From contig OZ242008.1 of the NCBI GenBank assembly GCA_965204735.1, positions 3,968,001 through 4,032,000 of the forward strand: a stretch of 64,000 nt of DNA. The letters run 5' to 3'. This document shows, piece after piece, positions 57,001 to 63,000 of this stretch (position 1 is the first letter of the stretch; each line of letters begins with the position of its first letter). The position numbers are program-made. Origin of the DNA: Longimicrobiales bacterium (lineage in GTDB: Bacteria; Gemmatimonadota; Gemmatimonadetes; Longimicrobiales; Gaopeijiaceae).

Positions 57001-60000
57001 CCCGGGCCCGAGCTTCGTCGTGGAGCGTCCGCTGGCGTCCCACGATCTCGGTCTTCCCGCCCAGGTCGGTGTAGTGGGCCCCCGTCGCCACGGCCAACCG
57101 CGCCATGGAGAAGTTGAAGAAGTAGGGGAGCGCGCAGAGGACCCCGGTCGCTCCCTCCATCAATGCCGCCACGTCGCGTTCCGCCGACGCGTCCACCTGC
57201 CGCAGCTCCAGTCGCCCGCCCACGTGGGGGGCCAGGAAGGGCTGCACGGCCTCGACGTTCAGGTCCGCCAGCACGACCCGCTCCACGGCGTCGTCCTGCA
57301 AGAGGTCGAAGGCGGCCGCGGAACCCTGGGCGCCTCCGCCCAGCACCAGGAAGGTCAAGACGCCTCCTCCGGGTCGGAGGGGTCGGGCAGCTCCCAGAGG
57401 CCGAGTCCGTCGGTGGGAGAGGCCGCGCCCGAGAGGCGGTCGGCGCCAAGCTCCGGCTCGCGAACCGACCGGCGGCTCCTCTCGTCGTCGCGCTTGCCGT
57501 CGGCGGCGCCCTTGGGGCTGCCGCGGTCGCCTTCCTTGCCTTCCCGACCGCTTCGGCTCCCGCCGTCGGCGCCGCTGGGGCCGGGGGCGATCCGCCGCGC
57601 CCCGAACGACCGCGTGACTTCGGCGATCCTGTCCCCCGTCGCGGGCGTCGTCAGCTTCTGGCCCCCGGCGTTGCGTCCCAGCAGGCCGATCTCGGCGGCG
57701 GCGAACGGGGTGAGGACGCCGCCTGCCGACACCAGCATGACCTGGTCGTCCTCCAGCACCTCCAACGCCGACACCACGGCGCCGCTCTCGTCGTCCAGGA
57801 CCACGGCCCGCGTCCCCAGCCCGCCGCGCTTCTGCGCCGAGAACTCGGCCAGGGGCGTTCGCTTTCCGGCGCCGCCTTCGGTCACCACGAGCACGGAGGC
57901 GTCGCGCACCACCGCCAGCATGCCGGCCACCTCGTCGCCGTCTCGGAGCGACACGCCCTTCACCCCCTGGGCGGTTCGCCCAACCACAGGCACTTGGTCC
58001 CCCGGGAACCGGATTCCGCGCCCGCGGCTGGTCACGAGCAGGAAGTGGGCGTCGCCCGAGGTGACGGCGGCGTCGAGCACCTCGTCGCCGGGGCGCAGCG
58101 TGACGGCGACGACGCCGCCCGGCCGAGGGTTCGAGAACTCGGCCAGCCGCGTGCGCTTCACCAAGCCCCGACGAGTCGCGAAGACCACGTAGCGGTCGTC
58201 GCCCAGCTCCTCCACCGGTACGATCGCCGCCATCGGGTCGCTCCGGTCCGCCTCCAGCAGCCCGTAGACGGACCTGCCCCGGGATGCCCGGGCGCCTTCG
58301 GGCACGTCCTCGACCCGCAGGAAGTGCGCCCGCCCCCGGCGCGAGAAGAGGAGCAGCCGTCCCCGGGAGCGCGCGACGACGACCTGCTGCGTGTAGTCGT
58401 CCGGGTACTTGTCCATGTTCGTCTGGGACATGCCGGAAGCGACCCGTCGCCGGTAGAGGCGCATGGGGATCCGCTTGGCGTAGCCCTGGCGGGAGATCAC
58501 CACCACGACGTCTTCGTCGGCCACGATGGAGCGCACGTAGGAGAAGTCGGCCTTGTCCTTGCCGTCGAGTATCTCGGTCCTGCGCGCGTCGCCGAACCGC
58601 TCCACCACCTCGTCCAGCTCCTCCAGCAAGACTTGAAGCTGGAGCTCCTCGTTGTCCAGCACGGCCCGCAGCTGCCGGATCTCCTTCACCAGCTCCGCTT
58701 CCCGGGCCCGCAGCTGGTCCCCCTCCAGAGCGGTGAGCTTGGCCAGCCGCATGTCGAGGATCGCCCCGGCCTGCACGTCGTCCAGCCCGAAGCGCCGCTG
58801 GAGACGCACCGACGCCTCGTCCCGGTCCGCCGATTCCCGGATCGTCGCGATCACCTCGTCGATCTGGTCCAGCGCCAGAAGGAGGCCCCGAAGGACGTGC
58901 AGCTCGGCCTCGGCCTGCTCCAGGTCGAAGCGGCAGCGCCTGCGGATCACGTCCAGCCGATGGTCCCGAAAGCGCTCCAGCAGCTCCTTCAGCGAGAACT
59001 CGTCCGGCTGCTTGCCGCCGTCCAAGGCCAGGAGGATCGCGCCGAAGGTGCACTGAAGGGCCGTCTTCTTGAAGAGAACGGCCATCATCCGCCTCGGCTC
59101 GGCGCCGCGCTTCAGCTCCACCACCAGCCGCATCCCCTCCCGGTCCGACTCGTCCCGCAGGTCCGCCACCTCGGGCAGCGCGCCCTTCCGGGCCAAGTCG
59201 GCGATCTGGTTGATCACCCGAAGCTTGGAGACTGCGTAGGGAAGCTCGGTGACGACCAGCTGCCTTCGGCCCCCGCGAAGCGATTCCGTCGTCACCCGGG
59301 CCCGCATCGTCATCCGCCCGCGACCGTCCTCGTACATCTTGCGGATGCCCTCGCGTCCCACGATGAACCCCCCCGTGGGGAAGTCGGGTCCCGGAAGCTC
59401 CTTCATCAGCTCCGCAACCGTGCACCGCGGCTTGCGCACCAGGACCCGCAGGGCGGCGGCCACCTCCCGCAAGTTGTGAGGGGGCACGTTGGTGCTCATC
59501 CCCACGGCGATCCCCGAGCTTCCGTTCACCAGCAGGTTGGGGACCCGGGACGGCAGGACGGTGGGCTCCTGAAGCCGGTCGTCGAAGTTGCTCTCCCAGC
59601 GGACCGTGTCCTTCTCGATCTCCGCGAGCATCTCGCGGGCGACGGGCGAGAGGCGCGCCTCCGTGTAGCGGTAGGCCGCGGCCGAGTCTCCGTCGACCGA
59701 GCCGAAGTTCCCCTGGCCGTCGACGAGGGGGTAGCGCAATGCGAACTCCTGCACCATGCGCACCAAGGCGTCGTACACCGCCGAGTCTCCGTGGGGGTGG
59801 TACTTCCCCAGAACCTCGCCGACGACGGTGGCGCACTTCTTGTGGGGTCGGTCGGGCCGGAGCCCGAGGCCGTGCATGGCGAAGAGGATCCGCCGGTGGA
59901 CCGGCTTCAGGCCGTCCCTCACGTCCGGGAGCGCCCGCTGGACGATGACGCTCATCGAGTAGTCGAGGAACGAGTCCCGCATCTCGCTCTCGATGACGCG

Positions 60001-63000
60001 GAGAACGATGCGCTCGCGCTTCTGGGCTACGGTCATTCAGGCTCCATGGGGGTTGGGGTCGCGCACCATGGAAGCTACCACTCGCCGCCAAGCGCCCGGG
60101 ATCGTTCCCCGCTCCAGCACCTCCGCTTCGTCGCCGACCCGCAGCCGCCCGGGGCCGTGGTGCACGGCGTTGAGACCGAAGTAGGTCTTGTCCTCGATCC
60201 GCCGATACTTGGCCAAGGTGCGCAGCGGCTCCCCGTCCGGGTCCCGCGCCCCGCTCCGCTGGTCGTGGGTGGTGACCTTGCACCGCGCGCACAGCTTCAC
60301 CCCGCTGAAGACGAGCCCCCCGACCACGAAGCGCCGCCAGCGGTCCTCGTCGTGGGGGCGGGCGCCCGCGACGACGATGTTGGGGCGGAACCGCTCCACC
60401 GGGATTGCTCGACCGGCCCGGCGCGCAAGCTCCTCCACCGAGCCCTGGCCCACGACCAGCGCAGGGTAGCCGTCGGCAAACCCGACTCGACGGCCCTTGG
60501 CGTAGGCGGGATCGGTGGCGCGCTCGGCCTTGCCCAGGAAGACCAGCCGGCAGTCGCGCTTCAGCGCTTCCGAGATCCACTGGTCGACCGGCGCAGGCGC
60601 GGTCCTGGCGTCCAGCTCCGCCTCCCACACCCGGATGCGCAGGCGCGGCCCGTCGAAGGCGGGGACGGAGAGGGGGCCGACTCCGGGCGCCTCCAGCGCC
60701 AGCTCGCCGTTCGAGGCGCTCGCGCGGACGGTGGCGAGCCGCGGCGTCTCCCGTTGGGTGACGAAGGCGCCGTTGGGGAGCACGACCATCCAGCGGCGAT
60801 CGAAGCAGGGGCCGATCTCGTCGAACTCGACCGCCTCGGCGTCGGCGCCGCGAGCGCCCTTGACGGGGTGGATGCGCAGGCGGGCGATCCGGAGGCGTCC
60901 GTGGTCGGGGCGAGCAGAGGCCGAGTCGGCGCGGGCCGAGGCCGAATGGGCGGGCGCCGAGGAGGCGGTCGGATTCATGTCGAGGGCAACGGATCTTCCT
61001 TGGACTTGCCGACGAGCGACGGGGCCAGCGCCAAGCCGATCAACAGGTCCAGCGCGATGTGGGCGAAGATCGAGGGCCAAAGGCTTCCGGTCCACGCCGC
61101 CCCGAGCGCCAGCCAAGCACCCAGAAGCCCCGTCCGCACCATCCCGTGGGGGCCTTGATAGGCGTGAAGGAGGCCGAACGCAACAGCGGCGGGCAGTGCG
61201 GCGAGGAGGTAGGAGCCGGTCCAGGGGACGAGGAAGGCGGGCAAGAAGCCCCGGAAGACGATCTCTTCGAACACCCCGGCCGCAACCGCCAGCAGGGCGA
61301 AGAGGGCCTTCTCCGTCGGCGTCGCGGGGATGATCGCGCGCACCACGGCGCTTTCCTTCCATCCGAAGACGGGCGACGCCGCCTTGAAGGCGTAGACGAC
61401 GGCAAGGCCGCCGGCCGTGAGGACCCCAGCGGCCGCCAGCAGCGTCGTCCATCCTCCCTGCGCCAGCCGGCCGCCGCTGCCCGGAAGGCCCAGCGAAGGG
61501 GTCGCCCAGGCGTCCGCCTGTGCTGGAAGCCCATCGGCCAGCCAGAGCGCCGCCAAGCCGACCACGGTCAGGACCACAATGGAGCTGGCGTACGCCTCCA
61601 GGCGTCGTTGCCCAAGATCGAAATCCAGGGGCAGCTGCTGGCCCAGCGCTGCCGCCGGCAGCACGACCAGAAGCGCTGCCGCTGCCGTCGCGTGAACCAC
61701 GCTGCCCAGCCCGCCGCCGACGAACGCCCAGGCCAGTACGGCGGCAGCGCCTCCGGCCGCCAGCCAGCCGCGTCGGCCCAGCGCTGGACCTGGCCTGGCC
61801 GCCATCGGACCTGGCCTGGCCGTCATCGGGCGCGTTCGCCGATTGACCCGCGCCCACGCCGGGCTCTAACCTTAGCCGCGGCCTTCCGTCTCCGGGCGCC
61901 GGCCCTTCGGTCCGGGCGAGACCGCCTCATCGGCGCGAAACTCCCCATGGGTCCGGCCGGCGCCCCGAATCCGGCGGAACGCCGCTTCGGTCCCCACCAC
62001 CGCTTCCGCCCCCAGCGAGGACGCGATGCCCGACCCGGCCGCCTTCAAGGCCGTCTTCCGTGTGATCGACGCCTACGACCACCCCCACGGCGGGAGGATA
62101 CTCAGGCTGCGCCTGGGAACGGGAGAAGCCCCGAGCGTGCGGGAGCTGAGGGGCCGCCCCATGACCGCCACTTCCGACGCCGGCGGCTCCCTGCGGCTGG
62201 AGGTGTCGGGCTTCTCGGCGGTGGGCGGCAAGCCTTCCGACGGCCGGCTGGCAAGAACCGGCCGCATCGACGTGCACGTCGCCGGCGACCGGGCGGGGCC
62301 GGTGGACGTCGGATGGGAGCTGGCCGTGCCGCAGTGAGCTCAATCTTGCCGGGAGCTTCCTCTCTGCCCCGGCGGGTCGCGCTCGAAGGTGCGGCGAAAC
62401 CACTCCTGGTAGGCGTCGGCGCGCTCGGGTCTCTGGGCGAAGTACTCCTTGCGGGCCTCGACGAAGGCGTCGGGCCGCGCGGTGAGTACGAATTCGTCCA
62501 GGAAGCCGTTCTCCTTGGCGTAGGTCAGCTCGTCCAGCAGCCCGTAGGGAGGGGCGTCCAGGATCGAACGCTGGTAGAGCCACACGTCGGCCACCCGGGA
62601 GAGGATCGCCTTCTCCAGCTCGAACTCGTCGGCGCCCTGGCCTTCCGGAAGCCACTTCTCCAGACGGTCCTGGAGCGCCATCAGGTGGTAGTGGGCGTAG
62701 ATCGTGTAGAGCTGGCTGCCCGCCGACCGGCCTTGGACGGCGATGCGGGCGGTGTCGCCGGCTTCGTTCAGCTCCAGGCTCTCCCACGGATAGACGGGAC
62801 CCTCCGCGCCTTCGGTGTAGATCATGAACGAAGGGTCCATCTGGATGCTGTCCCACTGCTCCCGGATCCAGGCGTCCACTTCCTCCATGCGTTCCTTGGT
62901 CGGGACGAGGCGCTCCCCGGAGTGGACGACGAGCCGTCGGGGTTCCGGGAGCTGCACTTCGCCCGAGCCGCAGGCCACGGAGGCGCATGCGGCCACGCCG

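Follow-up and report, generated by a model that had tools for sequence, protein, structure and literature searches.

Topoisomerase IV is thought to be derived from a duplicated gyrase that lost its GyrA-box (PMC8216471, PMC2647321), a loss described as abolishing supercoiling and not decatenation (PMC8216471). The layout of two A subunits with one B subunit already has a published parallel in cyanobacteria, where sll1941 of Synechocystis, a second A subunit, has been proposed to form a decatenating enzyme with GyrB (PMC9825172). Aquifex aeolicus has a type IIA enzyme that combines a gyrase-like core with a topo IV-like C-terminal domain (CTD) and shows topo IV activity (PMC8216471). As for the replisome, a 2024 review states that no gyrase-recruiting factor is known there (PMC11253446), and the partner table of another review lists topo II-alpha for PCNA and no topoisomerase for the bacterial clamp (PMC9690074).

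How does the locus described here compare? We analysed a window of 64,000 nucleotides (C1:3968001-4032000) from a Longimicrobiales genome that forms a single contig and is 98% complete. It encodes a second type IIA topoisomerase A subunit, A2, which we read, with a probability of roughly 60%, as a ParC-like decatenating subunit that shares GyrB with the ordinary gyrase. A2 lacks the GyrA-box, which is deleted in the cyanobacterial second copies examined; those copies, however, stem from an independent duplication: they form their own clade (support 98), and a tree that unites them with A2 is rejected (AU p=0.0003; sll1941 itself is not among the rows). With topo IV (ParC2ParE2, notably the six-bladed Bacillus-type ParC) A2 has in common a box-less CTD, an intact core and a place beside a normal gyrase. 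Unlike topo IV, it comes with no cognate ParE that we could find, by sequence, HMM score and tree alike it is closer to GyrA than to ParC, and its targeting would run through the sliding clamp rather than MukB, SeqA or FtsK (PMC8216471). The Aquifex system has one A subunit and no gyrase, whereas this genome retains a canonical gyrase, with which A2 would share B. Like the clamp partners with a QL[SD]LF motif (PMC9690074), A2 typically ends its disordered tail in a short word; in A2 this is mostly QL[DE]L[LIVM], a candidate motif known from sequence.

The gyrA2 gene and its distribution

The gene occupies positions 57355..60036 of the window (minus strand) as an intact ORF of 893 amino acids. 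Public contigs from two studies cover it without gaps, with 0 and 33 differing letters, and the former may be the source DNA. The product carries the PF00521 core with the HPHGD motif of the winged-helix domain (59785..59799, minus strand) and the catalytic RY of a type IIA A subunit, the tyrosine codon lying at 59665..59667 (minus strand; Y124, aligned to E. coli GyrA Y122). HPHGD and AYRYTE are both kept in 31 of 31 A2 proteins. The NCBIfam models score A2 at 968 bits as GyrA (cut-off 877) and at 636 as Gram-positive ParC (cut-off 813), and all five additional A2 proteins scored also exceed the gyrA cut-off. The box-bearing paralogue, A1, lies outside the window (G000:C1:3230744-3233392, minus strand) and is 48.2% identical to A2 over 861 columns. 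The claims of the genome-wide survey's note on these points, namely two type IIA A-subunit genes 48% identical and a second copy that scores as GyrA and keeps the tyrosine without the box, are thus borne out.

A promoter scan found nothing. No functional neighbourhood of A2 is conserved across the order; the nearby TPR protein, CAAX protease and hydrolases vary by family. A2 lies close to dnaN in three of four single-contig genomes, an observation that we do not use as evidence.

At least two PF00521 matches, which are not copy numbers, are present in 143 of 151 genomes of the order, and the eight with a single match are split into 240-930 contigs. The two-A pattern is common to Longimicrobiales, as the survey had reported. 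Its further suggestion that the second A arose in this order fails: families f6 and f7, which belong to other orders, have two A subunits and one B, and their second copies fall in the same clade as the A2 of the order. Families f4, f5 and f8 live with one A only, a point against the reading proposed here.

Origin of A2 and gene conversion of its 5' segment

All trees in this work are quick trees. An order-restricted duplication is rejected (AU p=0.0027), and the question of duplication versus transfer, which the unrooted tree of the survey had left open, can now be addressed with rooted trees, which favour a duplication inside the phylum. Transfer of A2 from cyanobacteria or from ParC is rejected or unsupported by the trees; descent from the ParC lineage finds no support in that A2 is nested among the GyrAs of the phylum, in trees with only two ParC rows. 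As to whether the single-copy families f4, f5 and f8 once had A2 and lost it or never possessed it, a later-duplication tree gave p=0.295 when the N-terminal domain included the converted segment described below and was rejected (p=0.0017) when that segment was removed, a result to be read with the long A2 branches in mind.

About 130 codons at the 5' end have repeatedly undergone gene conversion between A1 and A2. In a DNA tree of codons 14-130, A1 pairs with the A2 of its own genome in 7 of 31 genomes and does so in none for three other regions. The corresponding segment here lies at approximately 59641..59991 (minus strand; E. coli GyrA numbering), and no recent exchange is seen in this genome or in f6 and f7. 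Having been exchanged between A1 and A2 in seven genomes, the segment is interchangeable; it is also the most conserved part of the gene, and conversion in it therefore needs no functional reason.

Could A2 act mainly in mixed A1-A2-B2 complexes, tuning gyrase through a single wrapping CTD and lending it a clamp tether? Both A subunits must use one B, the active-site segment is homogenised between them, and of the residues invariant in A1, A2 retains 29 of 34 in the coiled coil and C-gate. Retention is likewise high in the N-terminal arm (26 of 27), the winged helix (48 of 51) and the tower (55 of 67). A few changes in the coiled-coil region are fixed, however, and together with the strong divergence of the CTD they suggest separate specialisation, so that we regard predominantly mixed complexes as unlikely.

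Loss of the GyrA-box

The box motif QxRGGxG is present in blade 1 of 31 of 31 A1 proteins and 20 of 20 single GyrAs, and in 0 of 31 A2 proteins. Where A1 has QRRGGRG, A2 has YRRRVASG (58432..58455, minus strand), modelled as a helix. The pattern L[YH][RKQ]RR recurs in this stretch in 24 of 26 A2 proteins of the order, and the stretch is deleted in f6 and f7. A box-like motif in blade 5, QKRGGLG, is kept (57814..57834, minus strand), as is RGGxG in 24 of 31 A2 proteins. A model of the orthologous CTD from genome G142 (pLDDT 87.8) has six blades, with GyrA CTDs as the nearest solved folds, and by this model the beta-pinwheel of the present A2, with all six blades, spans 57610..58593 (minus strand). 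Three traits of A2 speak against a topo IV-like role: its score as GyrA, its six retained blades and the basic helix in blade 1.

Could A2 still be a supercoiling subunit, one that wraps DNA by the new basic helix and is directed to the replisome, leaving the rest of the chromosome to A1? The LYRRRxxSGK helix is conserved in 24 of 26 order copies, the six-bladed CTD is GyrA-like, and a tail word was already present on the ancestral single gyrase. Moreover, the main GyrAs of cyanobacteria carry a non-consensus box, and a box off consensus does not therefore prove that wrapping is lost. We nevertheless consider a second supercoiling enzyme improbable: f6 and f7 lack the blade-1 stretch outright, 42 of the 71 A1-invariant CTD residues are lost in A2 (29 retained), and tested gyrases lose wrapping without the box (PMC8216471).

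Is A2 catalytic at all? A regulator that binds GyrB or DNA and titrates gyrase would be compatible with the faster evolution of A2 (mean identity 66% in the N-terminal domain and 45% in the CTD, against 74% and 64% among A1), and its active site could have been preserved passively by gene conversion. The catalytic motifs are intact in all 31 A2 proteins, however, including those of f6 and f7 without recent conversion, and the tower and coiled coil are under purifying selection. The protein as a whole evolves under purifying selection, dN/dS being below 0.4 for both domains in all 8 genome pairs. A purely regulatory role thus appears quite improbable.

A single B subunit

By tblastn, phmmer and PF00204 the genome has one B subunit, at approximately C1:822100-824032, directly after recF and outside the window. 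It scores 1006 as GyrB and 804 as ParE. Four Toprim matches were found, GyrB and three ORFs of 956, 656 and 271 amino acids, none of which gives a second B-domain match. Together with the NCBIfam scores, these searches found no ParE, which upholds the survey's single GyrB and lack of parE. Across the order, PF00204 has one match in 145 of 151 genomes, two in 4 and none in 2; by hand count, every one of the 40 genomes of at most 10 contigs has one B beside two or more A matches, and one B is found in 5 of 5 genomes of f6 and f7. We reject topo VI as an alternative decatenase, its A subunit being found neither in this genome nor in any of 46 genomes of the class. Although MAGs are incomplete and G122, G129 and G137 show two B rows (partial matches), a B-like partner of A2 that escaped our searches is very improbable given this 98% complete contig, the single B in 40 of 40 well-assembled genomes, the GyrB-like character of both B copies of G038 (one of them scored by profile) and the lack of a B-like gene among conserved A2 neighbours.

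The tail word and the sliding clamp

The disordered tail of A2 (57358..57609, minus strand) has a median net charge of -4 across A2 proteins, compared with -16 in A1; the GyrA trait tested is an acidic tail without positive charges. New here is that A2 tails end in a word resembling the beta-clamp motif. By patterns defined after the tails had been seen, the QL[DE]L-type word is present in 9 of 31 A2 proteins in its strict form and 19 of 31 in its medium form, in 0 of 31 A1 proteins and 0 of 20 single GyrAs, against a background of 3 of 2647 predicted genes. A wider pattern, for which an extraction filter left out 13 of 53 loci, matches 31 of 36 A2 proteins, 0 of 34 A1 proteins, 6 of 7 pre-duplication f12 singles and 5 of 15 f5 singles (background 3.3%). 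Among 71 cyanobacterial A proteins (9 of 80 loci were too short) the medium pattern is found in none and the wide one in 2; automatic A1/A2 labels, which misfile the main copies of picocyanobacteria, do not enter these counts. The final residue is mostly L, I, V or M and not the consensus F; MutS of the same genomes bears QLSFF, QLSLF or QLGLF (5 of 6 MutS shown). The word is eroded here, to DGLGLW (57394-57411, minus strand), and in some close relatives. This erosion, the departure from the final F and the definition of the patterns after the fact all count against the proposed reading. The pre-duplication single GyrAs hold both the GyrA-box and a similar word, which points to a split of functions.

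The proposed docking partner, the beta sliding clamp DnaN, is encoded in the window at 27139..28239 (plus strand), downstream of dnaA (25383-26810). A model of DnaN with the G142 A2 tail scored 0.57, a weakly supportive value given without an interface, with 0.02 for the best control. Of 157 solved pairs 116 attain the pass mark, as do 2 of 215 mismatched ones; among passes at or below 0.60, however, there are just 18 solved pairs, together with both of the mismatched ones. Between runs at least 31% of contacts agree, with partner pLDDT of at least 40. The pass may stem from likeness to solved clamp-peptide complexes. Recruitment of A2 by the clamp is a possibility that we place just short of even odds.

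A putative path to a GyrB-sharing decatenase

That A2 shares GyrB and acts much as topo IV does remains the best reading of these sequences, and it gains indirect support from the conserved active-site and N-terminal residues, the gene conversion of the 5' segment and the searches that found neither ParE nor topo VI. Under the proposed mechanism, a duplication of GyrA early in the history of the class would have left two copies that divide the ancestral jobs. A1, with its GyrA-box and long acidic tail, would go on pairing with the single GyrB as an ordinary supercoiling gyrase. Having kept the cleavage core and lost the box, A2 would be unable to wrap, and presumably to supercoil, DNA; with the same GyrB it would make up an enzyme like topo IV, able to relax and decatenate DNA. 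Its tail word would dock this enzyme on DnaN clamps that remain in the wake of the fork, the site of precatenanes, and so take the place of SeqA and MukB, which target topo IV in E. coli. Second-DNA capture is reported to depend on the GyrB/ParE subunit and is poor in E. coli gyrase (PMC8216471, PMC3510509), so that a GyrB-based enzyme need not decatenate well, although mycobacterial gyrase does. Only tentatively do we propose the full sequence of events, in which an ancestral gyrase bore both box and clamp motif, and its box-less copy became a clamp-docked decatenase that shares GyrB and whose active-site segment is kept matched by gene conversion.

For genome analysis, A1 and A2 are both annotated 'gyrA'; assemblies break at the converted 5' ends, which can also lead marker-gene trees astray. 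In the tail word there is a concrete candidate for gyrase-type recruitment to the replisome. The phylum also provides a dated, rooted case in which the A gene alone was duplicated, and since pre-duplication, two-copy and probably secondarily single-copy lineages are all living, this first step is directly assayable. If the proposal is true, these bacteria would show topo IV still in the making and would offer a bacterial equivalent of topo II on PCNA.

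Two A subunits and one B subunit

What does a second gyrase A subunit do in a genome with a single GyrB? The source genome (one contig of 4.14 Mb, C1; 98% complete) encodes the box-less A2 in gyrA2, an 893-aa open reading frame of the window (57355-60036, minus strand) that public contigs cover gap-free, and only one other A subunit, the box-bearing A1 (C1:3230744-3233392, minus strand), 48.2% identical to it. The one gyrB lies outside the window near recF, at about 822 kb. The genome-wide survey's count of two A subunits and one B stands. The tower region of A1 carries about 30 inserted residues (G000:C1:3232675-3232778), which split the protein's Pfam match, as in G013, another genome. 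In the window, dnaA and dnaN (25383-28239) lie about 30 kb from gyrA2, with recF-gyrB some 970 kb and A1 760 kb off; the ancestral dnaN-recF-gyrB-gyrA block, intact in families f10 and f11, is thus scattered here. Translations of a lower-GC gene run at 48000-53400 read as probable lipoproteins or beta-propeller proteins, and those of two nearby ORFs as ECF-type sigma factors.

The pattern proposed for all Longimicrobiales also holds: at least two A matches were detected in 143 of 151 genomes of the order (one in the other eight, all fragmented), and B matches number one in 145, two in 4 and none in 2. The accompanying claim that the second A arose in this order fails, since a duplication confined to Longimicrobiales is rejected (p=0.0027) and a phylum sample of 91 genomes, 82 of them outside the order, contains two full A matches in families f7 (4/4) and f6 (1/1). 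Five further f7 genomes yielded two A matches in four, and each of five f6/f7 genomes tested has one B. In families f4 and f5 (presumably Gemmatimonadales) and f8-f11, 72 genomes have one A match, 2 have no match and 3 have two partial pieces. Families f12 and f13 belong to the same class and carry a single full A adjoining gyrB. These tallies include the unpublished genomes G002, G030, G081, G141, G198, G236 and G237, none of which is in any tree. One f7 assembly (G239, L316; 3 contigs, 96% complete) shows the box-less copy alone; A1 was either missed or is not in the assembly. Three f7 genomes have A2 and gyrB on opposite strands, no more than about 10 kb apart (L057, L061 versus L095, L096, L097).

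Origin and exchange

In an 89-row tree the 31 A2 all fall into a single clade (SH-aLRT 99) within the GyrAs of the phylum, and the N-terminal domain alone (58 rows) gives the same grouping; every phylogeny here is a quick tree in which the A2 branches are long. Without the 5' segment (about codons 14-130, E. coli numbering), the duplication excludes f12 and f13, and the sister group of A2 consists of A1 and the f4, f5 and f8 singles, the GyrAs of genomes with one A subunit. A later duplication is rejected without this segment (p=0.0017) but not with it (p=0.295). A1 has gene neighbours in common with the f4/f5 singles. When 12 of 71 cyanobacterial A proteins are added, they form their own pair of clades, and a tree that joins them to A2 can be rejected (p=0.0003). 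Among the cyanobacterial loci (L138-L217), the main GyrAs have non-consensus boxes (QSRATRGK, TSRGSRGK) and both paralogues share a single active-site signature.

The 5' segment shows conversion between the copies. The DNA tree of codons 14-130 groups A1 with the A2 of its own genome in 7 of 31 genomes (support 87-100; three of the seven are single-contig), and no such pair occurs in three downstream regions. A1/A2 label switches number 16 in this segment versus 1, 1 and 2 downstream; a small excess in all regions is due to codon bias common to both copies. In G033 the copies share 299 identical bases, of which assembly collapse may be the cause; the G115, G009 and G038 assemblies break in this segment at exact or near-exact repeats of 83-134 bases, and from G003 came a single 5' piece against two 3' pieces. 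No recent A1-A2 exchange was seen in the source genome.

Predicted pairing and activity

As the survey's note described, A2 of the source genome lacks the blade-1 GyrA-box and has the catalytic tyrosine (Y124). Blade 1 reads YRRRVASG in A2 versus QRRGGRG in A1; HPHGD and the blade-5 QKRGGLG are kept. The C-terminal domain modelled for the G142 orthologue keeps six blades, with a helix in place of the box loop and a disordered tail; the 778-aa A2 of G036 (L022) apparently lacks the last blade and still carries the tail word. The N-terminal arm of the A subunit contacts GyrB, and A2 retains 26/27 A1-invariant residues there, 48/51 in the winged helix and 29/71 in the C-terminal domain.

We predict, at roughly 60%, that A1 and GyrB would form the gyrase, and A2 with the same GyrB a relaxing and decatenating enzyme that does not wrap DNA. 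Passages of PMC8216471 describe loss of the GyrA-box as abolishing supercoiling and sparing decatenation, which in M. tuberculosis gyrase is supported by the blade-5 box. The same source and PMC3510509, in part, make capture of the second DNA dependent on the B subunit, which counts against a box-less A2 with GyrB as decatenase. Mixed dimers of A1 and A2 are unlikely, and a fork-bound second gyrase is similarly doubtful. A regulatory A2 is improbable: catalytic motifs are complete in 31/31 A2 and dN/dS is <0.4 in 8/8 pairs. A partner of its own, missed here, is very improbable: domain searches of the source genome found no second B domain and no extra Toprim candidate. They found no topo VI A either, and NCBIfam assigns A2 to GyrA and B to GyrB.

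A possible clamp tether

A2 proteins end in QLDLL, QLELI, ELDLF and the like, resembling the clamp motif QL(S/D)LF, which part of PMC9690074 describes as tolerating variation. With patterns composed after the tails had been viewed, the strict one matches 9/31 and the medium one 19/31 A2, with none in 31 A1 or 20 singles; the medium background is 3/2647 crudely predicted genes of the source genome (L133, L134, L135: an MT-A70 methylase, a DDE transposase and a metallo-beta-lactamase-fold protein). A profile search gave 150 representatives, 16 nearest to A2, with the scripted pattern in 4 and a related terminal word by eye in 13; the scripted pattern is absent from the remaining 134. Four extra A2, taken from broken assemblies, have the terminal words QLSLI, QLDLL, QLELD and VLDLF.

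The wide pattern (background 87/2647; 13/53 new loci without a row) matches 31/36 A2, 0/34 A1, 6/7 f12 singles (one of the seven rows being G237), 5/15 f5, 0/20 f4 and 0/10 others. Judged from sequence, this distribution places box and tail word together before the duplication and divides them between the copies afterwards. Box-bearing singles of f12 (L286, L288, L289, L295, L296, L304) and f5 (L080, L305, L310, L331, L333) have QLEL/QLPL/QIEL termini; they are ordinary gyrases and candidate clamp binders.

MutS of A2-bearing genomes carries canonical clamp words; in the source genome MutS has QIPLF, DnaE QTSLF and A2 merely DGLGLW. Modelling G142 DnaN with its own A2 tail gave 0.57 versus 0.02 for the best control (contacts agree to 31% or more; partner pLDDT is 40 or higher), which is weak support because scores of 0.60 or less hold just 18/157 solved pairs but both passing mismatches (2 of 215); the score may also echo memorised clamp-peptide complexes. 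Clamps build up behind the replication fork in zones, according to part of PMC13220808. That the A2 tail would dock on DnaN there, tethering the putative A2-GyrB enzyme behind the fork, we hold at a little under even odds.

Significance

The idea of two A subunits with one B has already been published for Synechocystis (PMC9825172, in part). The literature searched, with few subscription journals, listed no report of Gemmatimonadota GyrA paralogues, of GyrA or ParC proteins with a clamp motif, or of conversion between gyrA paralogues. The A2 case is real, an independent instance of a known arrangement, and two previously unreported features render it directly testable.
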